From: Chloroflexota bacterium
GTDB lineage: Bacteria > Chloroflexota > UBA11872
Length of the DNA: 64,000 bases
Assembly (NCBI GenBank): GCA_965198185.1
Contig: CBDAOU010000001.1
Coordinates: 302,013 to 366,012 of the forward strand
Direction: 5' to 3'
Positions 10,514 through 55,539 of this stretch are shown piece by piece. Position numbers and translations under genes: made by a program. The notes below the pieces were generated by a model. That model was given only the letters and a program-made list of their open reading frames with translations, was not told where the DNA came from and did no database searches. Each line of letters opens with the position of its first letter. Within the stretch, counting starts at the first letter, position 1.

Positions 10514-11212
10514 ATGGCGACCGATCCCGCGTCGGGCCATTCGGAGGACGATGAGCAGCTCGCCGTCACGCAGGCGGACGGCACGCCGACCGGCGTCATC
10601 AAGTCGCGCAGGGCAATTCACACCGACGGCGACTGGCACCTCACTCGAAGTGTTTGGGCGCTGCTGATGAACGCCCCCGCCGGGCCGGCGCTGGTGCTGC
10701 AGCAGCGCGGACCATTCAAGGCCTCGTGGCCCGACCGGCTCGATGCGAGCTCGGCCGGGCACTTGCGCGTCGGCGACCCCGACACGTGGCGCGAGGCGGA
10801 GGAGGAGCTGGGTCGGCGTCCCGGTGCAGGCGAGGTCTTGTCGTTAGGCAAGCGGCAGAGCGGGGGCCGCCTCCCGAACGGACAGATCGACCTCGAGGTC
10901 CAAGAGCTATGGCTATGGCGCTGCCCCTTCGACTTGCTTGACCTTGAGCCGCCTTATCCGGAGGTGGGGGCGTTGCTGGCCGTGGCCCCCGACGCCCTCC
11001 GGCGTCTCGCGTCCGGCGAGGTGCAGCGCATTCCGGCGGTGGTACGGCGGCCCGGCGCGCCCAACGTGGAGGCTGGATACGCCACGGCGGACCAACTGAT
11101 TCCCGGCGAGGAGCCCTACATCAAGCAGGTGTGCGAGATCACGCTGCGCACCCTGGCAGGCCAATCGTGGACGCCGCTGGACGTGGACACGGAATACGAA
11201 CTCGGGCCGTAA
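10514..11212 (+). CDS. NUDIX hydrolase
   Basis: Nudix box-like GHLRVGDPDTWREAEEELG from Met MATDPASGH. The listed ORF start at 10403 is probably too far upstream. Confidence 0.6.
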   Translation: MATDPASGHSEDDEQLAVTQADGTPTGVIKSRRAIHTDGDWHLTRSVWALLMNAPAGPALVLQQRGPFKASWPDRLDASSAGHLRVGDPDTWREAEEELGRRPGAGEVLSLGKRQSGGRLPNGQIDLEVQELWLWRCPFDLLDLEPPYPEVGALLAVAPDALRRLASGEVQRIPAVVRRPGAPNVEAGYATADQLIPGEEPYIKQVCEITLRTLAGQSWTPLDVDTEYELGP

Positions 11213-11260
11213 CCGAACCTCCGCGAGCGAGTGGCACGACCGTCACAAGGAGGCTCGCCG

Positions 11261-11803
11261 TCAGCGGCGCCTGATGACGAGGAATGCGCCGAACGCGATC
11301 AGGATCAGCGGCCACAACCGCCAAGCATCGAATTGCGCGAAGAGCCCCAGTGAATCCAGCAGCGCAAGCACCCCAATGGCAACCAACGCCAGCCCGACGA
11401 TTGCCGGACCGCCCATGCGACGGCCGCGATTGCCGGCCGATCGTCCCGGCGCGTACGGCTGGTACGTCGGCGCGGCGTCAGGGGCTGCCGGCTCGGCATG
11501 CTGTTGCGGCGCGGATTCCGCACCTTCGGGCTCGTCGTCCGGCTGCAGCGTTTGTCCAGCTTCGGCGGGTTCGTCATCCGCTCCAACCGCTCCGGGTTCA
11601 ATCCCCGGCCCGGGGGCGGGGGGCGTGGGCACGACGACCACCATGACGAGGTACGCGATGATGGCGACCCCACCGGTGAAGATGGCGAGCAGCACCCAGA
11701 CCAGGCGCATAAGCGTGGGATCAACGTCGAAATAGTCCGCCATGCCGCCCGACAGTCCGGTGAGCAGCCGGTCGTGCTCGCTGCGATAGAGGCGGCGTTG
11801 CAT
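11261..11803 (-). CDS. PspC-domain membrane protein
   Basis: N-terminal [34 protein letters not shown] is a canonical PspC domain followed by a TM helix. Acidic/Pro-rich linker and C-terminal TM pair. Confidence 0.75.
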
Positions 11804-15431: not shown

Positions 15432-16187
15432 ATGTTCGTCTACGACATTTCAACCCGACTCGCGTGCTCAACGCTCTTGTTCCGCGCCCAGTCGCTGGAC
15501 CGGGCGCTGGACGGCGTGAAGGCCGCCGGCATCGAACATGTCGATCTATGGGCGGCGCCGACGGTGCTGGCCCACGTGGACCCCGCGGTCGAGAGCGCGG
15601 CGGACGTGCAGGCCGTGCTCGAAGCGCGCGGGCTGCGCGCGTCGTCGGTGACGGCCGTTGCGACCTCCGGCGACACGATGCTTCAGCGAATCAGCTTCGC
15701 CGCCGAGCTCGGCGCGCGCGTGGTCATTGCCACGGCGCCGCGGCGCGACTATGACCGCCGCGAAGCGGCCGACGACGTCCGCGCCTATGGCCGCACGGCG
15801 CAGGAAGCCGGCGTCACCCTCTGTCTGGCGCACCAGGCGGATACCTGGATGGACACGGCCGAGGAAGTCTCCTCGTTCCTGGACGACGTGGGTCATCCCC
15901 GCGTGCAACTGAGTCTGGACCCCGCGCAGGCCGCGCGCGACGGAATCACCTTCAAGGCGCTGGCCGACGCCGCCGGCACCCGAATTGGCCACGTGCACCT
16001 GACCCACGCGGCGGATTCCGGCAGCTCGCACACGCTGGGCGCCATGTTCGACCAGCTCGAAGAGCGCAACTACTACGGCATGTTCACCTTCAGCTGGGAC
16101 GGCACGGACAACCTGCCGCCGGAAGAGGTGGAAGCCACCGTGCGCGAAGCGCGCGCCCACGTGCTGGAGGTCTCCAAGGCCGGGTAG
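15432..16187 (+). CDS. sugar phosphate isomerase/epimerase (TIM barrel)
   Basis: 251 aa. Xylose-isomerase-like TIM-barrel family pattern (IEHVDLW, IGHVHLTHA). Confidence 0.65.
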   Translation: MFVYDISTRLACSTLLFRAQSLDRALDGVKAAGIEHVDLWAAPTVLAHVDPAVESAADVQAVLEARGLRASSVTAVATSGDTMLQRISFAAELGARVVIATAPRRDYDRREAADDVRAYGRTAQEAGVTLCLAHQADTWMDTAEEVSSFLDDVGHPRVQLSLDPAQAARDGITFKALADAAGTRIGHVHLTHAADSGSSHTLGAMFDQLEERNYYGMFTFSWDGTDNLPPEEVEATVREARAHVLEVSKAG

Positions 16188-16216
16188 CGCGGAGGTCAGC
16201 CGCCTACACTGTTCCC

Positions 16217-16507
16217 GTGAACGTGGGAACCCTGGAGCTGGTGCTGCGCATCCACGGCGCGGACTCCCTCAAGGACCGGCGCCGGGTGGTGCGGGCGCTC
16301 ACGGCCCGGCTGCGCAACAGCTTCAACGCGGCCGTCGCCGATCTGGAGCAGGACCCCGAGCCGCACTCGGCGCGCGTGGGCGTGGCCTGCGTCGCCAACG
16401 ACAGCCGCTATCTGGACGGCCAGCTCACCGCCATCGTGAACTTCGTCGAGGCCCTGCACCTGCCGCTGGAAGTGGTGAGCGACGCCCGCGAGATCGTGCG
16501 CCTGTAG
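16217..16507 (+). CDS. DUF503 (YlxP-like) protein
   Basis: 96 aa; LELVLRIHGADSLKDRRRVVRALTARLRNSFNAAVADL matches the DUF503 pattern. Confidence 0.7.
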   Translation: MNVGTLELVLRIHGADSLKDRRRVVRALTARLRNSFNAAVADLEQDPEPHSARVGVACVANDSRYLDGQLTAIVNFVEALHLPLEVVSDAREIVRL

Positions 16508-16600
16508 CCGGAGCCGGGCCTCAGCCGCGCCGCGCCTGCCTCACTGCGTCTGCAATGCACCCATTCTGGTGAGTTCGTCCCAGTCCGTCGTGAGCCGCTG

Positions 16601-16625
16601 CCGTTCGTGGTGAGCCTGTCGAACC
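16601..16625 (-). repeat. 25-bp dispersed repeat copy 1 (reverse complement of the copy at 55515-55539)
   Basis: ccgttcgtggtgagcctgtcgaacc is the exact reverse complement of ggttcgacaggctcaccacgaacgg. Each copy seeds a spurious ORF starting MVSLSNHE/R. Embedded in a longer GC hairpin-rich stretch (16580-16760). Confidence 0.8.
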
Positions 16626-17409
16626 ACCGCGAGCACCTTGGCCGGCATCGACCGATCCCCCTCAACCTCGCCTTTCCCACCAGGGGAGATGGGACCGGAT
16701 GCATACGCTCCGCACACCCCGCGCGCCATTCCAGGATCTCCACTCCCCAATCGCCATCTCCCCACGCGCAGTCGCCAACGCTCCGGTACACTGCGCGCCG
16801 AATAGCGGCGAAGGGCTTGGAGTTGCAGCGGTGGCCGTAGTTGCTCATCCGGGAAACCGGCGGAGCGTAGGAGGCATGCCGTTGCCAGTCGAAGCCATTC
16901 TTGGTCTAGTAGCCTTTCTGGGCTTCTTCCTGATGTGGGCTGTAGTTCCGGCCCAAATCCGAAAGCGATAGCCGAACCGGGCACTTCCCCGTAGAAGGCG
17001 CCGCACTGATGCGCGTTGGGCAAAGCTCGCCCAAGCCAGCTCGATGGCACAGAGCCTGGTGGTCGCCCCGCGACTCCAAGCCCCCGCCGCATTCAAAATC
17101 CCCGACGACAAGCCACGCCAGCGGGAATAGAGACGCCGTTCGCAACCCGTCGACAGCCGCACCAGCAATACCTCTGGGATTGACAGCCGCCGACGCATTG
17201 CGCACGCTTTGCGCGTACACCCCCTGCATGCTTCGGCGGCAGGGCGCAAGGCTGCCGCAAGGCAGCCTTAGCTTTTGTGGGGATGATTGACATCCGCACC
17301 AACGTCTACGTAGACGGCTTGAATCTCTACTATCGGGCGTTGCAGGTCACGCCGCCGTCGCTCAGTCCTTGCGTCCGCGCCCGCTCGCGTTCCAGCATCG
17401 ACAGGCGCG

Positions 17410-17727
17410 TCAGCGCACGGCGGTGACGTGCAGCCGAACGCCTTCGTGCCGCTGGATCTGGTTAATGACCTCGAACAGGTTGCGGGCCTGCGGGTTGCCG
17501 TTGGGACCGAACATGCGCATCAGGCTCTTGGACGGTTTGCCGGTCAGGCGTCCCAATTCATCGAACCCGACCGTAGCGTTGATGTAGTCGCGCAGCAGGG
17601 CCTTGCCAACATCCACTTCACCATTCAGCAGCGCCCCTATTCCTTCGTTCAACAGCCCTTCCCGGAACTCTGCGTCGCGCTGCGCGCGGGCCAGCACCGT
17701 CTCCCTGAAGTCGCGCGTGAGCGGCAT
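17410..17727 (-). CDS. putative addiction-module antidote protein (TIGR02684-like HTH)
   Basis: 105 aa. The C-terminal half, LGRLTGKPSKSLMRMFGPNGNPQARNLFEVINQIQRHEGVRL, matches the G-NP...L...L.ALG..L pattern of antidote proteins that partner RelE/ParE-like killer proteins. Confidence 0.55.
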   Translation of the reverse strand: MPLTRDFRETVLARAQRDAEFREGLLNEGIGALLNGEVDVGKALLRDYINATVGFDELGRLTGKPSKSLMRMFGPNGNPQARNLFEVINQIQRHEGVRLHVTAVR

Positions 17728-17730
17728 GTC

Positions 17731-18110
17731 CTAGGTCTCCTCTCGCTTGCGGCGTAGGTAGGCCGCCCAACGATTCTGGGCCGCGGTGATATCCGCCGAC
17801 TGGCGCTGCTTGGTTCCTCCGCCAAGCAGAATGATTACGGTGTCACCATCTCGGCCGAGCAGAGTAGATCCGGTAGCCGAGTCCAGTGTGCATGCGGTAC
17901 TCCAGCACCCCGCCCTCCGCCAGGGGTCCGGACAGCTTTGACTGCGTCGTCGATGCGGACAGAGCGCACGTACAACCCGAACTCCGGGCGGAGTATCCCG
18001 TATGGCGGCGCTCAACGACCAGCCGCACTCCTGGCCGCCACCCGACCGTCGAGTCGATTGAACCAGTCGGCAAACGGGCTGCGGCCCTTGTGACCGATGT
18101 ACTCCCGAGG
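17731..18110 (-). pseudogene. frameshifted RelE/ParE-superfamily addiction-module killer protein
   Basis: The conserved killer C-terminus ([32 protein letters not shown]) is in one minus frame (ORF 17731..18114). The preceding conserved block ([21 protein letters not shown]) is in another minus frame (ORF 17843..18286). At least one frameshift is required, and no intact N-terminus was found. Confidence 0.5.
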
Positions 18111-19186
18111 CCATATCGATGCCACGAGAACCGCCTCAGTTCGCGGTCCCGCGCCCGCTTGGCTACACGTCGAATATGGCTTGTACGAGCCACGTCAAAG
18201 GCCATCCAAGCGACCGGCCGCCGTGCACGTCCCGCTCCGCTTCCAGGATATGCCTGGTCTTCCGACCAGGGCGTCGTCTTCCACACCTATCGACTCAGGA
18301 AATTCACGGCCGACAAGAGGTGACGCCGGCGCTCTATGCCACCGGGATGCCGTACCTTATCGATGAAATGCATCGCCTTCGTCGAGCCGTTCGTGCGGAT
18401 ATCGTGAACAGCAACGGTCACGTGCCGCAGACGCGGGGTTCGAGCCGTAGGAGAACGCTTCGCGCTTTGGCGTCAGCCAAATGTTCGCGGCAGCTATTCG
18501 AGATCGCTCTCGATCGATGAGCAAACTCCCCTTTTGAGCAACTTCGACTCCTTCGCAAACGGAAGCTGGCGTGCAATGCGGAGCCAGATTCTCACGTCGG
18601 CGCTCGAGGAGCCTCATATCCGGACTCAACGACCACCTTGCCGTGCTGCTCAAACGGGCGGGCTTGCATGACCAGGGCGTGGCTATCCCGGGAAACGCCA
18701 GCACTACGTCTTGCGACCACGGCGAGAGTGATGCTGGAAGAAGATTGTTCTCGATGGCATCGACCGGCAGCGCCGACTGTTCGAGGCCGTGCAGCCGCAA
18801 TCAGCTGCCGCTATAGATAGATCTGGGTCATGAGGTCGCAGGTCGACCCATCGCCTGCCGTCCTTGATGACGAGCAAGTCGATGTCGAATTCTCTTCTAC
18901 CGGCCGCAACGGCGAGCGTGGCCCAAGTGAGGCCAGCGCGGCCGGCGGTAGGCGGCGACATCGACCCAAAGAGGCGCAATCGTAGGAGATTTTCTCCGGC
19001 CGATCGAGATTGGCAATTCCACATCATCTGAGGCACGATGCGCGTGATTCTCCTCGCTGATTTCTTTCAGGGTGTCAACTGGGCCTGGTCAATCGCATGC
19101 TTAACAGGCAAATCGGTCTCGACCACGGCTGCAGGCAGGGGCGCGATGCGGCCGTGGTCCTCGGGGATTATGCGCTTCGGCATCTC

Positions 19187-19837
19187 CTAGCGCCATCGAC
19201 CAGGTTCATCGGTGAGAGTGCGCTTCGGCCGGCACGGCTCCGGGGACGCATCCCAGCGGACGGTCGGCGCGGCGGCCGGCGGCGGCGGCGAGGAGCGGCG
19301 GCAGCGTCCACTTCGAGGGCCAGGGCGGCGATGACGGCGCCGGCGGGGGCTGTGAGCAGCGATGACGGCGCCGGCGGGGGCTGTGACGACTGCCGCGACG
19401 ATGCCGCTGGTGAGGTCGGCGTAGGCGCCGAGGACCAGGCGGCCGAAGCCGAGCATGCGCCACTGCAAGCGGCGGCGGAGATGAAGGCGCAGGCCGTGGA
19501 TGGCGGCGGCCCCTAGGGCGCCGAGCGCGAGCCCACCGATGATGGCGGCCGGGTGATCGGGCATGACCGCGGCTCCCGCCAGGCCGCCGGCCACGGGCCG
19601 CAGCACCCAGCCCACGCGGTCCATGAGGCCCCCGCTGCCGGGGAACTTGTCGGCGAAGAGGTCGATGGGCAGGAGCAGCAGGGCGATCAGGAAGACCGCC
19701 CCCGTGCCCACGAAGGCAAAGGCCGGGTTGGGCGTCACCAAGTCCGAGCGCCAGGCGAAGAGCGCGGTGAGCGCCACGGTGACGTAGGGATTGAGGCCGG
19801 CGGCGACGCCCAGGACGGGCGCTTGGAGGAATTCCAT
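19187..19837 (-). CDS. DUF4126-like membrane protein with a frameshifted C-terminal tail
   Basis: N-terminal 160 aa are a polytopic membrane protein. The tail (AHSPRRRRHRRPGPRS...) is Arg-rich out-of-frame read-through caused by the 31-bp tandem duplication at 19328-19389. Confidence 0.55.
   Translation of the reverse strand: MEFLQAPVLGVAAGLNPYVTVALTALFAWRSDLVTPNPAFAFVGTGAVFLIALLLLPIDLFADKFPGSGGLMDRVGWVLRPVAGGLAGAAVMPDHPAAIIGGLALGALGAAAIHGLRLHLRRRLQWRMLGFGRLVLGAYADLTSGIVAAVVTAPAGAVIAAHSPRRRRHRRPGPRSGRCRRSSPPPPAAAPTVRWDASPEPCRPKRTLTDEPGRWR
19328..19389. repeat. 31-bp direct tandem duplication (gcgatgacggcgccggcgggggctgtga + 3 nt) inside the 3' end of the DUF4126 gene
   Basis: Read directly. 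Units start at 19328 and 19359. The period of 31 is not a multiple of 3. Confidence 0.85.
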
Positions 19838-20931: not shown

Positions 20932-21492
20932 GGGGTCCTCGGCTTGGTGTGTACGGCGCTGGGTCATTTTGCATCCGGCGCCATCCGTGCTTCGTGGGCG
21001 ACCTTCACTTGCGGGCAGGTGTCCGGCGATCGCCTCGATGAGACCGTGGGAGAGCGGGGTCGTCCCCGGCCCGTAGCGCAGGCCCAGAGCCCGAACAGTT
21101 GCCGGGCCACCGCGGCGAGCCCGCATCCGCAAGGTAGGGCCTCAGCGCAGCGGCGCAGACCGGACGTGCGGCATCGATGTCGCCGTCCACCCGCCCTGGC
21201 GGGTCACGTGCCAAGCCGCCCAATGCTGGAGGCCAGTGGCGGCTACGAAGGCGGTGGTGGACGCCTTGGCCGCCACCGGGCTCTGCCGGTGGTGGTGGTT
21301 GCGCGCTCGCCCGCTGATGGGAGAGGGGGCCGGGCGGCACTTCTGGCAGTCATGCTGGGCCCGGGCGTGGCCAGCGATGCCGGAGAGCGCTTGGCGCTGA
21401 TCTAACGTGGTTCGTGACCCGACCGCGCGGGGCGGGCGTCCTAGCTGGTGCGATACTCCACGGGCCGATAGCACTGCTTGCAAAGAGATCCC

Positions 21493-27943: not shown

Positions 27944-28933
27944 ATGGATCCAATGAACGGCTCGGGGCACCACAGGCAGTCGTCGTCGCGACGTTCGCGA
28001 CGCCGGGTGCTCCAGGGAGGCGGCCTGGCCCTCGCGGCCGGAGTGGCACAGGCATGCGATGCCTGGTCGGTGGTGGGCAAGGCCGACGACCGCTACCCAG
28101 GGGGATCGCCCTTCGCCATCGAGGCGCTGCGCGCACGGGACTACCGGGCGGGCGACATCCGGCTGCACCGCACGCTCAACCAGCGCCCCAGCTATACGAC
28201 CTACGCCATCACGTACCGCTCGGACGACTTGCTGCTCACGGGGGTGGCGACGATTCCGAAATCGGCCGGACCGCACCCTGTCGTCGTGCTGAACCACGGA
28301 TTCATGCTGCCGGTGCAGTACGACAGCGGCGACGGCACCCGGGCCATGGCCGCCGAGCTGTCGCCGCGTGGCTTCATCACGCTCGCCAGCGACTATCGAG
28401 GACATGGCGGGTCCGAGGACGACACGCGGCTGAATTCGGGCGCGCGGCTCGAGTTCGCCATCGACGTGCTCAATCTCGTCGCCTCGATTCCCTCGCTACC
28501 CGACGCCCAACACGAGCGCGTGGGCATGTGGGGCCATAGCCTGGGATGCGACCTGGCCCTGCGTGCCGCGGAGGTCGACGCGCGGGTACAGCCGGTGGGG
28601 ATGTGGGCGCCGTTGAGCGCGTGGGCGGAGGACCTGGTGGACTACTACCGGCTCCCGACGCTGTCGTCGTCAAAGGACCTGCGCCACGCGCTATCGCCGG
28701 GGAACTTTCTGAACTATCTCGTCGGACCGGTGACGATCCATCAGGGCGCGGCCGATCTTGCCGTCAAGCCTCGGTGGGCGGCACGGCTGCACGAGGCGCT
28801 GAACGAGGCGGGGGTGGAGAGCGAGTTGACGATTCATCCCGGCGTGGGGCACTACCTGACCCTGAACGCTCGGCGGGCGGTGACCGCAACGGCGGACTTC
28901 TTCGAGCGCGAACTCCTGCACGACGCCAGGTGA
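27944..28933 (+). CDS. Tat-secreted alpha/beta hydrolase (prolyl oligopeptidase/S9-like)
   Basis: Twin-arginine signal SRRSRRRVLQGGGLALAAGVAQA. GHSLG nucleophile elbow. Confidence 0.65.
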   Translation: MDPMNGSGHHRQSSSRRSRRRVLQGGGLALAAGVAQACDAWSVVGKADDRYPGGSPFAIEALRARDYRAGDIRLHRTLNQRPSYTTYAITYRSDDLLLTGVATIPKSAGPHPVVVLNHGFMLPVQYDSGDGTRAMAAELSPRGFITLASDYRGHGGSEDDTRLNSGARLEFAIDVLNLVASIPSLPDAQHERVGMWGHSLGCDLALRAAEVDARVQPVGMWAPLSAWAEDLVDYYRLPTLSSSKDLRHALSPGNFLNYLVGPVTIHQGAADLAVKPRWAARLHEALNEAGVESELTIHPGVGHYLTLNARRAVTATADFFERELLHDAR

Positions 28934-29469
28934 CGACGCACCACGGCGACCATGGCGAAACGAGCCTGTTCGATGGCGCCCGCGTGGAGAAGGTCGACGC
29001 GCGGATCGAGGCGCTGGGCGCGGTGGACGAGCTCAACTCGTGGCTGGGCTTTGCCGCGGCGCAGCCCGACGTCGCCGGCGTGGGCGACCGGCTGCGCTGG
29101 GTCCAGGAGCGGCTGCTCGAGGTCGGCGCGGACCTGGCCAATCCCGGCGGCCGCGCCCGCAGCACCTCGCTGGCGCCGGGGTCGCTACAGACGCTGGATG
29201 CCTGGCTGGCCGAATACCGCGACGCGCTCCCACCACTGCGGCACTTCATCCTGCCCGGCGGGCACCCGCTCGCCGCCGCGCTGCAAGTTGCTCGCTCGGT
29301 GTGCCGCCGCGCCGAACGCGGCGTATGGCGCGTGGTGACGGATCCCGCGCCGGAAGGCTCGCCGGTGTTTCTCAACCGGCTGTCCGACGTGCTCTTCGAG
29401 ATGGCCCGCGCGGCCAACGCCGCCGCCGGCACCGAGGATCCCCAGTGGCGCGGGCGGGGCGATGTCTAG
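28930..29469 (+). CDS. ATP:cob(I)alamin adenosyltransferase, PduO type
   Basis: GTG overlaps the upstream stop (GTGA). TTHHGDHGETSLFDG at the N-terminus; GGHPLAAALQVARSVCRRAER... C-terminus. Confidence 0.75.
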   Translation: MTTHHGDHGETSLFDGARVEKVDARIEALGAVDELNSWLGFAAAQPDVAGVGDRLRWVQERLLEVGADLANPGGRARSTSLAPGSLQTLDAWLAEYRDALPPLRHFILPGGHPLAAALQVARSVCRRAERGVWRVVTDPAPEGSPVFLNRLSDVLFEMARAANAAAGTEDPQWRGRGDV

Positions 29470-29729
29470 CTTGTCTGCACTAACGTAGGCGCCCGTCTAC
29501 ACCTTCAGGCTTTCCGGTATTCGCCATCAGTCGCTCGCGGAGCCGGCGCGAGCTTCGCGCCGCATCTCCCAGCCGGTAGCAGCATTGGGTGATCGACTTG
29601 ACGATCCGCTGCCATCGTCCTGCGCGAGCGGGCTGCTCGTGATGCCCTCCGACTACAGCTTTGTCGGCGGGCCGAAGGTCAACCGTTGTATGATCTCGGG
29701 TTATATGCGGAGGACGCGAGGCTAGACCA

Positions 29730-30251
29730 GTGATTACGCAGCTATTTGGCGGACGGATTCCACCTCTGCTTCGCAATATCTTCAGCTTTCCGAATCCGGT
29801 CAACGAAGTGGCTGCAAGGATCGTAGCTGGAATGGTAGTCATCCTATCCATTATTGTATTAGTAACCGGTCAGTGGTGGTTGATGTTTCTCCTTGCGTAT
29901 GGCTTTCTGGCCAGAGTAGCCACCGGGCCTACGCTAAGCCCGATGGGCCTGCTGGCGACCAGGGTGATCGCGCCGCGAATTGCTCAACAGCGGCTCGTCC
30001 CGGGGCCGCCGAAGCGCTTTGCTCAAGCGGTGGGGCTTATTTTCTCGATGACCGCACTGGTGTTGCACTTCGTCGCAGGATTGTCGGTGGCAGCTGGCGC
30101 CGTCTTGGCGGTGCTGACCGTATTTGCCGCGCTTGAGTCATTTCTGGGTTTCTGCGCCGGATGCTTTGTGTTCAACTACATGATTCGCTGGGGGTTGGTG
30201 CCGAAGTCGGTCTGCGAGGAATGCCTAAACTTTGACTCGACACGGACATAG
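29730..30251 (+). CDS. DUF4395 family membrane protein (lower-GC insert)
   Basis: 173 aa with four TM helices and C-terminal C..C.....C motifs (FCAGCFVFNYMIRWGLVPKSVCEEC). Local GC is visibly lower than the flanks. Confidence 0.55.
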   Translation: MITQLFGGRIPPLLRNIFSFPNPVNEVAARIVAGMVVILSIIVLVTGQWWLMFLLAYGFLARVATGPTLSPMGLLATRVIAPRIAQQRLVPGPPKRFAQAVGLIFSMTALVLHFVAGLSVAAGAVLAVLTVFAALESFLGFCAGCFVFNYMIRWGLVPKSVCEECLNFDSTRT

Positions 30252-30357
30252 GCAGCTCTTTGACCACCGTCGCAAGCGTTCCGCATCACACGAACATTGG
30301 CGGGGCGCATGGCGGTTCGACAGCCTGAGTCAGTCCGCGATTCCCGCGATGCAGACC

Positions 30358-30540
30358 GCCCGTTCCATCTGCCGCCGCGCCGAACGCGACGTGTGGCGCG
30401 TGGTGACGGAGCCGGTGCAGGAAGCCTCGCCGGGGTTCCCTAACCGGCTGCCGGACGTGCTCTTCGAGATGGCCCGCGCAACCAACGCCGCCGCCGGCAC
30501 CGAGGATCCGCAGTGGCGCGGGCGGGCGGAGAGCCCGTAA
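30358..30540 (+). pseudogene. 3' fragment of a second PduO-type adenosyltransferase gene (diverged direct repeat of 29293-29469)
   Basis: ARSICRRAERDVWRVVTEPVQEASPGFPNRLPDVLFEMARATNAAAGTEDPQWRGR versus ARSVCRRAERGVWRVVTDPAPEGSPVFLNRLSDVLFEMARAANAAAGTEDPQWRGR in the intact gene. Roughly 89% nucleotide identity over ~150 bp. Confidence 0.75.
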
Positions 30541-30690
30541 GCCGGACGACCATGGCATTGCGAGGGCGGAATGCTCTTGTGAGTGGTAGATGGGAGTCCC
30601 TGAATATGCCCGCCGCGCCAACCTGATAGACGGCTAGGCGGCGCGGGCGCCGTGCATGGATTGTGCATGGATGGGGTCGCAAAGCGTGGC

Positions 30691-31212
30691 TTAGCTGCCG
30701 TCTTGCTGTTCCAACTCCGCGCACGCGATGTACCACGCGTGGCGTGTTTCAAAGAGGTCGAAGATGGCCTCACCCTCGCTGTCCCACCTCGTGGTGTTGA
30801 GGGCGGTTTGCAGCGCCCAAAGGATTCGGCGTCCCGTGACTCCCGCTGCCTGCTGCGCACGCTCGGTCCAGCAGTCGCCCGGACGCCAGTTGTCCGGGAT
30901 TTCCTTTTCGGGGATCAGTCCCAAGCGCTCGCACCGGTCGCAGGATTCGCGTTCAGGGGCCAGAGAATTGCCCAGCAGCACGCCGGTGCGCAGGCTGGCG
31001 AGGGTCCGACACGCGAGGCACATGCGCTCGTCGCTCTCAGCCACCGAACCGTGTCGGTCCCAGCCGACATCAGCAATATCGCCGCAGTCAGGCTTGCCGC
31101 AGAACGTGCACAGCATCGGCGGCGGCGCAAAGTCCTGCGAAGGCCATTGGTCCCGCTGCGAATAGACGCAGGACGGTTGACCACACTGCGGGCAGAGGTC
31201 TCTTGACTTCAC
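30691..31212 (-). CDS. Cys-rich hypothetical protein with two predicted zinc ribbons
   Basis: 173 aa. CPQCGQPSC...CTFCGKPDC...CLAC...CDRCERLG, then a helical C-terminal half. Starts 2 nt after the stop of the T5orf172 gene. No family recognised. Confidence 0.55.
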   Translation of the reverse strand: MKSRDLCPQCGQPSCVYSQRDQWPSQDFAPPPMLCTFCGKPDCGDIADVGWDRHGSVAESDERMCLACRTLASLRTGVLLGNSLAPERESCDRCERLGLIPEKEIPDNWRPGDCWTERAQQAAGVTGRRILWALQTALNTTRWDSEGEAIFDLFETRHAWYIACAELEQQDGS

Positions 31213-31214
31213 CG

Positions 31215-31781
31215 TTAACTTCCCCCGCCTTCGCCCACAGCGCCAACGTCTATCTGGCTCGCCACGTCAGTCGCGGGAGGCGCGGTGCTTTCAACGGGAC
31301 GGAGGGACTCTTGAAAGCGCCAAACAGGCTCGTCTACGCCTGGCATTTGGATCACAGCCATGTAGGGAGTGAGCCTTTCGATGACACCCTCACCGCCGTC
31401 GAAGGTGACAGACTGGCCGACAGCCAAGTCGACGCCCGGCGGTTCATCGTCGCGCTGCGGCGTGACGTCCTCTCCGTCTAGCAGTTCCAGAATTGCCGCA
31501 ACTTGCTCCACCGCCACCTCAAAGAACTCGCGCCATGCGTGGACGCGCGCTGGCTCGAACGCCTGATGGAGTGCGGCTTCGACGGCTTGATAGTTGTCGA
31601 CTAAGCGGGCGATTTCGCACCTAAAGGGAGTCGGGACGCCCGAGGACCATAGGCCCTTGAGTCGCTTGTCGAGGTTTCCGTCGCTTGTGCACCCGATCTT
31701 GACCACATCCGGCATCGCCGGGTTCGTCAGCACGTAGACGATGCCGCGGTCATCATTGGACGTGGTGTCCTCAGTCGCCAC
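31215..31781 (-). CDS. T5orf172 (GIY-YIG superfamily) domain protein
   Basis: GIVYVLTNPAMPDVVKIGCTSDGNLDKRLKGLWSSGVPTPFRCEIA...REFFEV is a close match to the T5orf172/MUG113 domain. Acidic C-terminal extension of unknown function. Confidence 0.7.
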   Translation of the reverse strand: MATEDTTSNDDRGIVYVLTNPAMPDVVKIGCTSDGNLDKRLKGLWSSGVPTPFRCEIARLVDNYQAVEAALHQAFEPARVHAWREFFEVAVEQVAAILELLDGEDVTPQRDDEPPGVDLAVGQSVTFDGGEGVIERLTPYMAVIQMPGVDEPVWRFQESLRPVESTAPPATDVASQIDVGAVGEGGGS

Positions 31782-31840
31782 TAACGCGACTCCATCATGG
31801 TCCGGCAGCGGACGGCGAGCGTATCAGACAGATTCGCGGC

Positions 31841-32150
31841 CTACGCCGCCCCCGGCAGCCGCCGCCGCAGGGCGTAGCCGAAGTCAACGTAGCACCCGCC
31901 ACTGTGTCCGCCCGGCGTGAACAGGATCAGATTTGTAGCCTCGCGGATGTCCGCCAAGTCGATCTGGGCGCAGCGGCGTCGCTCAAGCGTCGTCAGCGCC
32001 TCGATTGGCTTGCGAAGGTCCGCGTTCGCCACCGGGTTATGCCAGCGGTTCACGACGGGGAATCCCAGGTCGCGCAGCTGCTAGGCGTAGCCTTCAATCT
32101 CAGCGTGCCGCTCGAACCGCGCCGCGAGGTAGATGCCGTGAATGGGGTTC
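31841..32150 (-). pseudogene. nucleoside 2-deoxyribosyltransferase-like gene interrupted by an in-frame TAG (32071-32073)
   Basis: My translation: ...ENPIHGIYLAARFERHAEIEGYA*QLRDLGFPVVNRWHNPVANADL...ILFTPGGHSGGCYVDFGYALRRRLP. IYLAg...G.P and G..SGG.yvdfGYA resemble the NDT/DUF4406 family. Only the part after the stop is in the ORF track (GTG 32053). Confidence 0.45.
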
Positions 32151-32294
32151 TCGGTCACGGGTGGCCCGCCTCTCCCTGTGCATGGGTCTGCTCATAGATA
32201 GAGGTGCACGGGCGCACACGGAGAGCAACCGGCGACCGCTCGCGGGGCACGATTACAGAAGGGAGAGGCCCCTTCGCGCACGGAGAGAAGCGTG

Positions 32295-32371
32295 TGGTAG
32301 GGCATGCGGGATTCGAACCCGCGATCTCCGCCTTGAGAGGGCGGTGTCCTGGGCCGCTAGACGAATGCCCC
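32295..32371 (-). tRNA. tRNA-Glu (anticodon CUC)
   Basis: Minus strand reads GGGGCATTCGTCTAGCGGCCCAGGACACCGCCCTCTCAAGGCGGAGATCGCGGGTTCGAATCCCGCATGCCCTACCA. 7-bp acceptor stem, D-arm TCTAGCGG, anticodon stem CCGCC/GGCGG with loop CTCTCAA, T-arm GGGTTCGAATCCC, encoded CCA. Confidence 0.85.
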
Positions 32372-32584
32372 ATGCGGTGTTGCGCCGCTCGCCATGCTAC
32401 CGAAACGGCAATGCACGGTGTAGCCGCGTAGAATCGAAGGTCGTGGGTCACAGCGCTTGCTGGGGCCTGCCGCCTCACCCTAGCCCTCTCCCCAACGGAG
32501 AGGGGACCGGACCGGTTTCGCTAGCCATATCGGCAGAGGCCGGAATTCGCAGGAGGTCTGCCACGCCTAGCCAGACCAGCGCCA

Positions 32585-33922
32585 ATGTTTGACACCCTGA
32601 CCGAGCGGTTGGGAGGCGTCTTTCAACGCCTTGGACGTCGCGGGCGGCTTTCCGAGAAGGATGTGACCGCCGCCGTGCGCGAGGTGCGCATGGCGCTGCT
32701 CGAGGCCGACGTCAACTTCAAGGTGGCGCGCGACCTCGTGGCGGGCATTCGCGAGCGCGCGCTGGGCGCCGAGGTCCTCGAAAGCGTCACGCCGGCGCAG
32801 CAAGTCATCAAGATCGTCAACGATCAGCTCGTCGAACTGCTGGGCACCGAGGCGGTGCCCATGGCGACCGCTTCGTCGCCACCCACCGTCGTAATGCTGG
32901 TGGGCCTGCAGGGGTCGGGCAAGACCACGACGGCGGCCAAGCTGGCGCTGGGCGCCAAGGGCCGCGGCGGCACGCCGCTATTGGTGGCCGCCGACACGCA
33001 GCGGCCAGCGGCGATTGACCAGCTCGTCACGCTGGCGCAGCAGGTTGACCTGCCGGTGCACGAGGAAGGCACCGACCCCTCGCCGCTGAAAATCGCCGTC
33101 AACGGCGTGGCCCGCGCCCGCGCCGAGGGCCACAGCCACGTGATCCTCGACACCGCCGGCCGCTTGCAGGTGGATGACGCGCTGATGGACGAGATCGGGC
33201 ACATCTCGAAGCGCATCAAGCCCCACGAGACGCTGCTGGTCGCCGACGCCACCACCGGCCAGGAGGCGGTGACCGTGGCCGAGGCGTTCCACGCCCGCAG
33301 CCCGCTCACGGGGCTGATCCTCACCAAGCTCGACGGCGACGCCAGGGGCGGCGCGGCCCTCTCGGTGCGGGCGGTGACCGGGGTGCCGATCAAGTTCGTC
33401 GGCACGGGCGAGGCCGTCGAGCCGCTCGAGACCTTCCATCCCGACCGCATGGCCTCGCGAATCCTCGGGATGGGCGACGTGCTTTCGCTGGTCGAGCGGG
33501 CCGAGCAGGTGATCGACGAGCGCCAGGCCAAGGAGATGGAGCGCAAGATGCGCGAGGACTCCTTTGGGCTGGACGACTTTCTGGATCAGCTGGAGCAGGT
33601 GAAGAAGATGGGGTCGCTGAGCCAGGTGCTGGGCATGCTGCCGGGCATGAGCGGCGCGCTGAACGATCCGGAGGTTCGGCAGGCCGTGGAGGGCGAGGGG
33701 CTGCGCCGGTTCGAGGCGATCATCCTGTCGATGACGCCCCAGGAGCGCGCGTCGCCGGACATCATCACCGGTCGGCGGCGGCGGCGCATCGCGGCCGGCA
33801 GCGGGACGTCGGTGCAGGACGTCAACCACCTGCTGAAGCAGTTCAAGCAAGCCCGCCAAATGATGCAGATGATGAGCAGCGGCAAGATGCCGGCCGGCTT
33901 GCGGGGGTTGCTGGGGAACTAG
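32585..33922 (+). CDS. ffh: signal recognition particle protein Ffh
   Basis: NG domain (GLQGSGKTTTAAKLA; DTAGRL) and M domain (Met-rich C-terminus QARQMMQMMSSGKMP). Confidence 0.95.
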   Translation: MFDTLTERLGGVFQRLGRRGRLSEKDVTAAVREVRMALLEADVNFKVARDLVAGIRERALGAEVLESVTPAQQVIKIVNDQLVELLGTEAVPMATASSPPTVVMLVGLQGSGKTTTAAKLALGAKGRGGTPLLVAADTQRPAAIDQLVTLAQQVDLPVHEEGTDPSPLKIAVNGVARARAEGHSHVILDTAGRLQVDDALMDEIGHISKRIKPHETLLVADATTGQEAVTVAEAFHARSPLTGLILTKLDGDARGGAALSVRAVTGVPIKFVGTGEAVEPLETFHPDRMASRILGMGDVLSLVERAEQVIDERQAKEMERKMREDSFGLDDFLDQLEQVKKMGSLSQVLGMLPGMSGALNDPEVRQAVEGEGLRRFEAIILSMTPQERASPDIITGRRRRRIAAGSGTSVQDVNHLLKQFKQARQMMQMMSSGKMPAGLRGLLGN

Positions 33923-34731: not shown

Positions 34732-35609
34732 GCCGCACCTGCCGTTCCGCGGAAGCGTTCCACGATTTCCCGCAGCCGATTGAGTATCTGCGCGTTCACC
34801 TCGAGCGAGTGGCCGTCGACCATGGCGGTGTTCGAGCGAGTCATGCCGTCCACGGCGCCGGCCGCCACGAGACGCTCAATCCAGCCCGCCTCAGTGGCGC
34901 CGTCCGGCAGCGTGTCGCGGCCGGTCACGATATCCAGCATAGCGACAAGGCCGTAGGCGCCCCAGTTGCTGACCTCGGCCAGCAGGAGGTGCGCAGCGCG
35001 GGTCACGCTCACACCTGGGATGAGCCCCTTGGCCCCGAGGAATTGCGCGATGGCGCCCATGCCGATTTCATTGCCGCCGTCGCCGACCGCCACCGAGAGC
35101 GGGGCGCGCATCAGCGGGTCCAGCGCGGCGGCTATGCCGGTGATGTCCTCACCGCGCATGGTGATCAGCCGGTCGTCGGCCGTGAGCCCCGGCCGCTCGA
35201 TCGCCACGACCAAATCGGGTGCATACTTCCGGCGCAGCGCCTCGCAGGCCGCCTGGGCGCCGCGACCGGTGCTCGGAGCCGCAACGACCGGCCCGATGTC
35301 GGCAAGCAGCGCATCGACGACGGGAAACGTCGTCTCGCAGGCCACCGTGACCACGTCCCAGCCGAGATCCGTCAGCGTCCTCCCGACCGCCATCGCGCCC
35401 GGCGGGCCGTCGGTCTCGCCGATCCCGCCGACGGGAAACCCCGTGAGGAGCATCGCCTGGGCGGGCGGGCGATCCGCGATAGCCACGGCAGTTCGGGCGT
35501 AGGCGTCCTCCGGCAGGAGACCGCGGCATGCGCCAAGGCCGCGGCTGTCCGTGGGGAAGACGGCGGCGGCTATCGCCTCTGCCGCGTTGCGCTGCCACCC
35601 CTGCATCAT
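34728..35609 (-). CDS. DUF4392 protein (second half of a split D-glutamate-cyclase-like enzyme)
   Basis: 293 aa; GFPVGGIGETDGPPGA and VGDGGNEIGMG motifs. Stop/start overlap with the DUF1445 gene (ATGA). Confidence 0.6.
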   Translation of the reverse strand: MMQGWQRNAAEAIAAAVFPTDSRGLGACRGLLPEDAYARTAVAIADRPPAQAMLLTGFPVGGIGETDGPPGAMAVGRTLTDLGWDVVTVACETTFPVVDALLADIGPVVAAPSTGRGAQAACEALRRKYAPDLVVAIERPGLTADDRLITMRGEDITGIAAALDPLMRAPLSVAVGDGGNEIGMGAIAQFLGAKGLIPGVSVTRAAHLLLAEVSNWGAYGLVAMLDIVTGRDTLPDGATEAGWIERLVAAGAVDGMTRSNTAMVDGHSLEVNAQILNRLREIVERFRGTAGAA

Positions 35610-35764
35610 TTGCGTTGGCCGGTCGTCATTCGAATCCCCAGTGAGTTTACGCCGACTCTACTTGGGCGCGAGCGTAGAATGCGGATCAACCGGCGACGGC
35701 CTCACGATACATTCTCGATTGTCAATCGCGGCCCTGGTCGCAAGACACTGCAGACAAGAGAAAC

Positions 35765-36343
35765 TCAAGACTCTCTAGCAAAGACACCAAGAAAGCTAAT
35801 CCAGCCCAAGATACCGATCAATACAATAGTAAATTCACCTCTGCCCAACGGCGCTATCGCCGACCTCGGAGACGACTGCCAATAGCGATTCAAATCCTTC
35901 TGTATATACGACAAGATGCAAGCCGTAGCCAGTACATCGGTAAGAAATGCCACCTGAGAAATCGCAGCTATCTCAAAAACTTGGGAGTCCATCCCGATTT
36001 CCCAAGGGTATAGCAGCCTCATGGCGGGAAACATAAATCCAAATAGATATACAAAGCCAAATGCAATCACAGCTAGCACAGGCTTGATGGATGTGTCCAA
36101 GCCTCGTGCTACCATCAGATCCTTGTATGCCCGCACGTGATTGTGAACTTGAAACAGGCCATAAAACGGCACTAGAAACGACAGAGCATGCAAGAGTGGA
36201 TATGCCGTTCTTCCAGTATGATCCCTATAGTGCTTCCAGGTACGGAATGCCCAATACAGAAGGTATAGACCTCCTGATATCAATGAGACAATAACTACAC
36301 CTCTCACTGGTATTACGTATTGGTTTGAGTACACTCTCGGCAA
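35765..36343 (-). CDS. hypothetical membrane protein encoded in an AT-rich segment
   Basis: 192 aa with five hydrophobic helices. The local sequence is conspicuously AT-richer than the surrounding genome. Confidence 0.5.
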   Translation of the reverse strand: MPRVYSNQYVIPVRGVVIVSLISGGLYLLYWAFRTWKHYRDHTGRTAYPLLHALSFLVPFYGLFQVHNHVRAYKDLMVARGLDTSIKPVLAVIAFGFVYLFGFMFPAMRLLYPWEIGMDSQVFEIAAISQVAFLTDVLATACILSYIQKDLNRYWQSSPRSAIAPLGRGEFTIVLIGILGWISFLGVFARES

Positions 36344-36518
36344 ATTTTGTAACTAATGTCAATCCCCGACGCTAAGGGCGTAGCCCTAACTTTAACAGAA
36401 GGCTCCTTAAACATCGGTCCACATTGGCCCGTCAACGCCACCGCCCGATACAGCTCCAGCGCCACTGGTTCCCACTGGCGCGACTTGGCGCTGTAGTCTA
36501 CCGCAGCAATAGCTTCGC

Positions 36519-37220
36519 TTAGCCGCGGCCGAAAAGGCCGAACACGGCGAGGCCGCCGAGGAAAAGCACGCTCCCCGAGACCGCCACCAGCGCCTCTGTA
36601 CGGGCGATCCCCCGCGGCAGCAGCGCCATGACGCCCATGTTCACCGCCGTGTGCACGGGGATGAGAGCAATCACCAGCAGCGGCCAGCGCGCGACGAGCA
36701 GCGTGAACCCAATGTGCGCGGCGCCCGCGAACAGCCGCTCGACGACGCCCCAAGCCGGTGCAATCTCGCGGTCCAGTCCCATCTTGGCGAGCTCTTGCCG
36801 GGCCTCCAGCGCCCGTGGGTCGTCGCGGCGCATGAGCGCCAGCCGCACGAACCCCACCTGGATCCCGTAGACGGCCTCGACCGCGGCCCAGCCCGCGCCG
36901 ATAGCGTAGGCCGTGGCGAAATCCTGACTGGCCACCAGCACCACGCCCAGCCGCGCCAGCTCCTCGGTCGGACCCGCCAGTGCGGGCGTCCAGCGGCGCA
37001 TGACGTCCGGGCCGGCACCGAGCTGCCGCAGGCCGAAAACCACCGGCAGGCGCAGCACCAGCGCCAGCGTCCATCCCAGCGCGCCCGCCCCGAACCAGCC
37101 CCAGGGCACCTCATGGCCCAAGCCAACGGGGACAAACACCAGCGCGGCCGTTGCGGCGAGCGCACCGACGCCACCCGCCGCGTGGGCAAGCCCCTCACGA
37201 ACGGACATGCGAGCTGTCAT
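36519..37220 (-). CDS. hypothetical polytopic membrane protein
   Basis: 233 aa with six or more TM helices. No family assigned with confidence. Confidence 0.5.
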   Translation of the reverse strand: MTARMSVREGLAHAAGGVGALAATAALVFVPVGLGHEVPWGWFGAGALGWTLALVLRLPVVFGLRQLGAGPDVMRRWTPALAGPTEELARLGVVLVASQDFATAYAIGAGWAAVEAVYGIQVGFVRLALMRRDDPRALEARQELAKMGLDREIAPAWGVVERLFAGAAHIGFTLLVARWPLLVIALIPVHTAVNMGVMALLPRGIARTEALVAVSGSVLFLGGLAVFGLFGRG

Positions 37221-55428: not shown

Positions 55429-55514
55429 GGCCGAGCCTGGCGCCCTGGCGCGGGCGGGGCGGATGGGGAATCCCACGCTGCGCGCAGGCCACTGCACGTC
55501 GAAGGTCCGTTCAT

Positions 55515-55539
55515 GGTTCGACAGGCTCACCACGAACGG
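55515..55539 (+). repeat. 25-bp dispersed repeat copy 2, within a hairpin-rich intergenic element (55440-55660)
   Basis: ggttcgacaggctcaccacgaacgg. Flanked by two copies of ggggaatcccacgctgcgcgcag (55455, 55613), the second forming a perfect palindrome cccacgctgcgc/gcgcagcgtggg. Confidence 0.8.

Follow-up and report, generated by a model that had tools for sequence, protein, structure and literature searches.

A stretch of 2.7 kb between a DUF503 gene and a DUF4126 gene, lying in a 64,000-nt piece of a Chloroflexota metagenome-assembled genome (MAG; contig CBDAOU010000001.1, positions 302,013 to 366,012, hereafter the window), had been described from its letters alone as a coding desert with a decayed toxin-antitoxin (TA) locus and repeat debris. 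Comparison with related contigs reveals a zone in which the allele of a close relative is preserved nearly base for base and interleaved with short insertions, together with a conserved structured RNA that carries a small open reading frame (ORF). The best overall explanation, which we hold with modest confidence, combines a consensus artefact at an accessory-gene hotspot, a hidden small gene and genuine loss of the toxin in the clade. Read from left to right, the 2.7 kb would comprise a variable spacer, the small-peptide RNA gene, the relic of a lost ORF, a resident type II pair formed by a TIGR02683 toxin and a putative helix-turn-helix (HTH) antitoxin, an orphan MntA-like gene and DUF4126. 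The stretch would be a hotspot for accessory genes that vary from strain to strain, set between two core genes in a Chloroflexota MAG of the sponge type.

A zone of insertions across three genes

Related loci were collected as contigs encoding identical or near-identical antitoxins, giving 19 TA-bearing loci, with 37 loci (L001, which is contig ctg780068_10x_l of ERZ25067264, and so forth) fetched in all. The flanking genes are those named in the original prediction, with matches to the expected Pfam families, and the features of the insertion zone and its surroundings are as follows.

16217-16507 (+): DUF503 gene, a core gene and the left flank (PF04456, E 1.8e-22)
17410-17727 (-): antitoxin gene, intact, 105 aa, putative HTH type
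17731-18125 (-): toxin gene of the RelE/ParE family, HI1419 type, interrupted by 7-13 insertions (ca. 63 nt), with TIGR02683 fragments in separate frames
17859-19394: insertion zone, 1536 nt, composed of 961 nt of the L001 allele and 577-587 inserted nt (alignment to L001 4910-5870)
18287-19098 (-): MntA-like (Pol-beta superfamily) nucleotidyltransferase gene with ca. 40-70 insertions (block-by-block alignment to L001 5098-5610)
19187-19837 (-): DUF4126 gene, the right flank (PF13548, E 8e-15)
19328-19386: near-tandem duplication at the left edge of the zone, 28 nt exact, period 31, the sole one of its kind in the 64-kb window

The zone was aligned to L001 on the reverse strand, from 19394 down to 17859, by global alignment with four gap costs. 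Under all four it differs from the L001 allele by 59-103 insertions of 1-36 nt, 577-587 nt in total, with 0-10 nt deleted. The longest common subsequence of the two amounts to 949 of 961 nt (98.8%), as against ca. 775 nt when the zone is shuffled, and the underlying allele is free of stops, with ca. 1% substitutions. Insertion density is uniform, at ca. 37% of bases, and the edges are sharp and lie inside two genes, ignoring gene borders: the zone takes in ca. 50 codons at the end of DUF4126, all of the nucleotidyltransferase gene and the first ca. 70 codons of the toxin, ending ca. 130 nt before the antitoxin. Outside it, the window is 99-100% identical to L001, with ca. 14 inserted nt in 4 kb. 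None of the 19 TA-bearing loci shares any of the insertions, and the edge duplication is absent from L001, L003, L004, L012 and L019. No further zone of this kind was found at 11.3-24.5 kb, the part of the window that L001 and L003 cover, where the comparison showed just clean block replacements, one in L002 beside DUF503 and the other at 21033-21314. At the latter a 280-nt block stands in place of a 35-nt hairpin element (CCCTCTCCCATCAGGGAGAGGG...) of L001 and L003, a strain-specific replacement unlike the insertion zone in being clean.

All three genes are affected. The killer gene had been described as split between two frames, and both fragments are borne out, TIGR02683 profile positions 64-93 lying in the frame of ORF 17731-18114 and positions 44-63 in that of ORF 17843-18286; its N-terminal third, which that account had not placed, is in the third frame. 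The window fragments score 24.8 and 16.3 bits, below the TIGR02683 cutoff of 62.85, which intact 109-aa alleles pass (89.8 bits in L001, 80.9 bits in L012). The locus is assigned to the family because of these intact alleles, the window gene as written encoding no member. Deletion of the bases inserted relative to L001 yields an open frame of 109 codons with 4 amino acid differences. The same procedure restores the nucleotidyltransferase frame except for its last ca. 8 codons, which are shifted by one unaligned base. As written, the window copy of this gene has no Pfam match; the L001 product matches PF18765 (E 1.9e-11) and PF01909 (E 4.3e-9), and scores 34.9 bits against the MntA model NF047752, under its equivalog cutoff of 60. 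No HEPN-family gene is called beside the nucleotidyltransferase in L001-L004 or L014. In DUF4126 the last ca. 50 codons (19187-19394) are garbled by insertions, giving a product of 216 aa instead of 196, and this aberrant product is present in the public protein collection (NCBI and ENA, contig of 1,175,210 nt), which shows that the zone does not come from an alteration of the window sequence.

The inserted DNA has the local base composition and bears the dinucleotide signature of the genome, with a log-likelihood ratio of +5.8 compared to -8.9±4.3 for a null of independent, identically distributed letters and 8.0±3.9 for a null of real DNA; random letters were rejected on this test, and the inserted sequence looks like real DNA rather than basecaller noise. 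Stutter copies of the flanks were rejected as a source, there being no excess of k-mers shared with the flanks. Local templates within 300 nt on either side, on both strands, gave only matches at the level of shuffled sequence, save the edge duplication (25 nt in that search). Nothing was returned by 11-mer matching of the insertions to the rest of the window and all loci, searches of the L004, L014 and L015 cassettes and of all loci with blastn-short and tblastx were equally negative, and exact scans for a 29-nt snippet gave 0 matches in GTDB representative genomes and 0 in JGI metagenomes. A coding cassette occupying the coordinates of the zone is likewise unsupported, as the inserted DNA has no 3-periodicity.

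Consensus artefact or genuine insertions

On this pattern, the zone is most likely a long-read consensus artefact in which reads of different haplotypes were merged. It would represent the intact allele of a 99-100% identical strain, interleaved with ca. 60-100 short unrelated snippets, and the interleaving would arise in contig polishing, where a partial-order-alignment consensus is made in 500-nt windows from co-occurring strains with different cassettes; what this strain truly carries may be the intact genes or another cassette. The locus is precisely one at which strains living together differ. Polishing in metaMDBG uses a racon-like SPOA consensus in non-overlapping 500-nt windows (PMC11392814). 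At 961 nt, the sequence preserved in the zone is near two such polishing windows. The related contigs are low-coverage long-read assemblies whose names end in 3x, 4x, 9x or 10x, in what we take to be the metaMDBG naming style (ctgN_3x/4x/10x_l). Truncated housekeeping genes occur in L001 (10x; 1370-2038 and 11035-11535) and, several of them, in L002 (3x); an M20 peptidase measures 222 aa as opposed to 395 aa in L003, and a pseudouridine synthase 166 or 234 aa as opposed to 274 aa. The truncated genes of these sister contigs point to residual indel errors in this assembly set.

Several points weigh against an artefact, which is itself deduced from the pattern. Preservation looks better in the other genes of the window than in the genes of L001, a 10x contig, the M20 peptidase frame being open for instance, so that very low coverage is not evident for the source contig. 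A second haplotype that could have supplied the snippets was not found in the 37 loci, the rest of the window, the GTDB representatives or the JGI metagenomes, and the snippets lack, in zone coordinates, the codon periodicity expected of a coding cassette. Furthermore, a standard heaviest-path consensus would not obviously retain both haplotypes. We know of no published account of a consensus in which the backbone is kept and foreign snippets are interleaved.

Were the insertions real, one catastrophic or short-lived process would have put ca. 60-100 foreign-looking snippets into ca. 1 kb without deletion, destroying the toxin, the nucleotidyltransferase and the tail of the DUF4126 membrane protein at once. 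In favour of this, the public record contains the sequence, garbled DUF4126 product included, the rest of the source contig looks to be of good quality and the inserted DNA resembles genuine genomic DNA rather than sequencing noise; moreover, just dispensable-looking genes are struck, the antitoxin being spared, and inactivation of the toxin is tolerated or favoured in the clade. Such a burst is nevertheless unlikely, though its probability is appreciable. To our knowledge, no bacterial mechanism adds dozens of untemplated or distantly templated snippets without loss or duplication of flanking bases, nor do we know of a bacterial process by which unrelated snippets are interleaved by the dozen and not one base is lost. 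The uniform density, the edges inside two genes rather than at gene borders, the lack of local templates on either strand and the absence of every insertion from the 19 related TA-bearing loci also speak against it.

Much less probable still is ordinary gradual pseudogene decay of the TA locus and neighbouring junk. Toxin fragments in different frames beside an intact antitoxin, genuine single-lesion toxin pseudogenes in relatives and the ORF relic at 17277-17345 would all fit it, but decay is expected to bring substitutions, stops and mostly deletions; the zone is 98.8% preserved without stops and has gained ca. 580 nt compared to at most 10 lost. The window otherwise matches L001, whose genes are intact, at 99-100% identity, which leaves no time for gradual decay. 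The original prediction of a toxin pseudogene beside an intact antitoxin is true of the sequence as written and fits the clade, while the insertion-only pattern makes an assembly artefact likelier than a pseudogene, so that its advice to check for sequence errors was apt. The comparison with close relatives that it called for did uncover real toxin lesions in the clade; the L001 allele is intact, and the zone is that allele with insertions.

A public MAG contig of 1.17 Mb probably carries 1.5 kb of garbled consensus that reads as three pseudogenes. Zones of this kind make pseudogenes seem more numerous than they are and could lead work on symbiont genome decay astray. Their signature lends itself to screening: sharp edges, insertions only, and the allele of a relative retained as an almost perfect subsequence.

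A conserved small-peptide RNA downstream of DUF503

The new item in this locus is an unannotated, DUF503-linked small-peptide RNA, with the following parts.

16787-16792 (+): -10-like box TACACT (variants TACAAT and TAACAT in distant homologs), preceding the first helix by 7 nt
16800-17094 (+): conserved structured RNA, ca. 295 nt (conservation and covariation)
16800-16820 with 17076-17094: helix P1, 19 bp, closing the 5' and 3' ends, with 10 covarying pairs
16822-16835 with 16874-16889: helix P2, pairing the AUG and the next four codons
16876-16971 (+): unannotated 31-codon ORF MPLPVEAILGLVAFLGFFLMWAVVPAQIRKR, with one hydrophobic helix and a basic tail

Positions 16776-17108 are 93-95% identical in the 19 TA-bearing loci and five further GTDB species (L021-L025), the flanking protein genes being 84-91% identical, and the DUF503 gene precedes the small-ORF RNA in every related locus. 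Gene callers missed the 31-codon ORF in the loci of close relatives, yet it is unbroken in 17 distinct sequences from close relatives and in 5 distant lineages, with length and stop position conserved, and differences fall by codon position in the order 3 > 1 > 2 (e.g. 9/2/15 for positions 1, 2 and 3 in comparison with L031). Among 1.84 billion representatives, five homologous peptides came out of an exhaustive profile search (E 3e-9 to 3e-4), and a DNA pattern scan added further homologs. In the homologs the ORF follows DUF503 in the same orientation at a distance of ca. 100 nt, including in circular genomes of 2.7-3.2 Mb without the TA hotspot. A partial second copy of the RNA was observed in L025 (4666-4775; 3' third, ca. 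81% identical), ca. 800 nt from the full copy.

The fold is supported by covariation. With divergent sequences included, RNAalifold predicts 83 pairs, 19 of them with compensatory changes, as against 8.6±2.0 in shuffles (0 of 500 reaching this number) and 1-6 in slid controls, and 94% of cells are paired in the predicted fold compared to 35-46% in slid controls. Helix P1 and a 5' hairpin are best supported, and both G-U pairs and the fold z-score (-4.3 vs -3.0) favour the + strand. Covariation among close relatives alone is uninformative, with 1 compensatory pair, and becomes clear only after divergent homologs are added. The position of the -10-like box is conserved in all 8 sequences of the divergent alignment (A12), and the box may act as a promoter; a consensus promoter scan of both strands showed no promoter-like site. 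Taken together, 16800-17094 is read as a putative self-contained small gene for a single-helix membrane peptide, preceded by its own -10-like box. Given the observed fold and coding signature, helix P2 would hold off translation of the ORF until the fold opens, and translation is probably gated in this manner. Two features sit uneasily with this. A GGAGG lies just 1 nt from the AUG, and start codons, otherwise ATG or TTG, are ACG in two lineages (seen in L033, L034 and protein P0127), where either translation starts at a non-canonical codon or no peptide is produced.

That the lack of ORFs might hide an RNA gene had been considered in the original prediction, alongside a genomic junkyard. The former is broadly right for 16800-17094, where the RNA belongs to no Rfam family, and not for the rest of 16580-17400 or for 18120-19100. 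The known structured RNAs that it wished to see scanned for (RNase P, tmRNA, 6S and the like) are practically excluded as the cause: beyond the absence of long ORFs nothing speaks for them, and Rfam 15 gives nothing over 16000-19800 at E<=1 and, over 16700-17420 at E<=10, one noise match, to mir-1181 (15.7 bits vs a gathering score of 95). The 31-aa peptide, similarly, matches no Pfam or NCBIfam family. The claim of a coding desert without other genes thus gives way at two places, to this structured RNA with its small ORF and to the insertion-riddled nucleotidyltransferase.

A type I toxin-antitoxin module, in which 5'-3' pairing and an antisense RNA would silence the mRNA of a small toxic membrane peptide, is a rather improbable alternative for 16800-17094. 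Such a module would be in keeping with a peptide of 31 aa that has one hydrophobic helix and a basic tail, with a conserved helix that sequesters the start codon, with a 5'-3' closing helix of 10 covarying pairs and with the proximity to a type II TA hotspot. The gene is, on the other hand, single-copy and fixed in position downstream of DUF503 in lineages at 64-77% peptide identity, with or without the TA hotspot, and this fixed single-copy synteny is why a core small-protein gene fits better than an addiction module; in a simple promoter scan neither an antisense promoter nor an antisense RNA was detected. Through the small-peptide RNA a new family of small proteins and RNAs becomes open to experiment, and perhaps the function of DUF503 as well.

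Toxin loss, the accessory-gene hotspot and comparison with known systems

The antidote-like ORF at 17410-17727 is intact, as the original prediction had it. Its homologs number more than 8000, the closest coming from Chloroflexota MAGs, where they are named "transcriptional regulator". The protein has no Pfam or NCBIfam match at E<=0.1 (TIGR02684 and HTH_3 included) and no PDB sequence match; a structural model suggests an XRE-like helix-turn-helix fold. In 19 of the 19 loci fetched through antitoxin homologs the gene adjoins a TIGR02683 toxin gene or its remnant. The toxin lies upstream, with 3 nt between stop and start, a spacing kept in the window.

An intact 109-codon toxin is found in 7 loci. 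Elsewhere the gene has lost its GTG start, now GAG (L008-L011), carries a 1-nt insertion near the 3' end (L005-L007) or a 1-nt deletion at codon ca. 8 (L016-L018), has had its 5' two thirds lost and replaced (L004) or shows several lesions (L015). The antitoxin ORF is intact in all 19. Because several of the toxin lesions recur in independent short-read assemblies, they are real; at least five related lineages carry independent toxin lesions with the antitoxin retained. Here a RelE/ParE toxin has been lost time and again across related species while its antitoxin was strictly kept, a clean natural example of orphan-antitoxin retention.

Gene order in the relatives is DUF4126, a cassette in some strains, the 109-aa toxin, the 105-aa antitoxin, a gene-free stretch and DUF503. 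The cassette is lacking in L005-L013 and L016-L019, consists of a Pol-beta/NTP_transf_2 nucleotidyltransferase in L001-L003, of the nucleotidyltransferase and a 3-kb low-GC insert replacing most of the toxin in L004, and of the nucleotidyltransferase and an ImmA/IrrE-type pair in L014; on account of this variation the interval between DUF4126 and DUF503 is regarded as an accessory-gene hotspot. In L027-L030 (4312-5905) the DUF503/small-ORF pair is followed by a same-strand lipoate-protein ligase-like gene (PF21948), a radical-SAM gene and a convergent ffh, an arrangement that may represent the ancestral context before the hotspot arose.

Smaller features occupy the left part of the stretch.

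16603-16628 (+): 26-nt dispersed repeat element, second copy at 55512-55537 (-) with 2 mismatches (0 matches expected by chance)
17248-17269 (+): terminator-like hairpin followed by a T-run, weak (1 found vs 0.9 expected in shuffles)
17277-17345 (+): ORF relic of 23 codons (...NVYVDGLNLYYRALQ), homologous to the start of a longer ORF in L015

The 26-nt element, GTTCGTGGTGAGCCTGTCGAACCACC, thus has two oppositely oriented copies in the window; it recurs near DUF503 in L001 and L016 and may be a dispersed repeat resembling repetitive extragenic palindromic (REP) sequences. Apart from this element and the long-range stem of the conserved RNA, the repeats in the region are short two-copy matches at essentially chance level, and the dispersed repeats and repeat debris of the original prediction find no support beyond these two. 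Its patch of lower guanine-plus-cytosine (GC) content is real, with GC 0.58-0.62 at 18250-19150 vs a window mean of 0.67. The junkyard applies only to 17106-17409, with the ORF relic, and to 16508-16780, a variable spacer in place of which L002 carries unrelated sequence. The segment 17111-17405 is strain-variable and missing from loci of the L005-L014 type, the terminator-like hairpin sitting in a segment present only in L001-L004 and L015. The relic has no Pfam match, and an NYN-like label considered for it was not confirmed there; its longer L015 counterpart is interrupted too.

Two regions elsewhere in the window were also recorded. Codon periodicity is low at 35401-36750, where GC is 0.53 vs the window mean of 0.67. 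Within 28546-32600, ORF 30232-30540 repeats the C-terminal ca. 65 residues of ORF 28546-29469 (...RRAERxVWRVVTxP...FLNRLSDVLFEMARAxNAAAGTEDPQWRGR), which has the appearance of a target duplication on either side of an inserted island at ca. 29480-32500; this putative island lies directly upstream of ffh, and ORF 32005-32592 translates a tRNA-like motif.

With regard to known systems, both the TA pair and the nucleotidyltransferase belong to known families as ordinary members. The pair resembles HI1419/HI1420-type pairs (HigBA-like order, HTH antidote) in its upstream toxin and downstream antidote, with alleles passing TIGR02683, and an orphan antitoxin beside a decayed toxin is a familiar chromosomal pattern that is matched here. 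It differs in that the antitoxin has no TIGR02684, Pfam, NCBIfam or PDB sequence match, and in that the window toxin is broken by many insertions rather than by a single lesion. The nucleotidyltransferase shares with the type VII antitoxins of HepT-MntA systems (MntA/MNT) the Pol-beta/NTP_transf_2 domain, a weak NF047752 match, small size and a cassette-borne setting; unlike these, it scores below the cutoff, has no HEPN partner seen adjacent, is present in only some strains and is unreadable as written in the window.

The insertion zone has in common with the window-consensus errors of Racon/SPOA (metaMDBG, PMC11392814) an extent of about two 500-nt windows, a strain-variable locus, an edge duplication and low-coverage neighbours. 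The small-peptide RNA invites comparison with hok/Sok and aapA1/IsoA1, and with other structured small-protein or dual-function RNAs. The mRNAs of these type I toxins engage in long-distance 5'-3' pairing, and with them and the other RNAs of this kind it shares a hydrophobic peptide with a basic tail, a sequestered start codon and a covarying 5'-3' helix. Unlike hok/Sok and aapA1/IsoA1, with which it has no sequence or Rfam relationship, the RNA is single-copy and strictly syntenic with DUF503, and no antisense partner was found for it.

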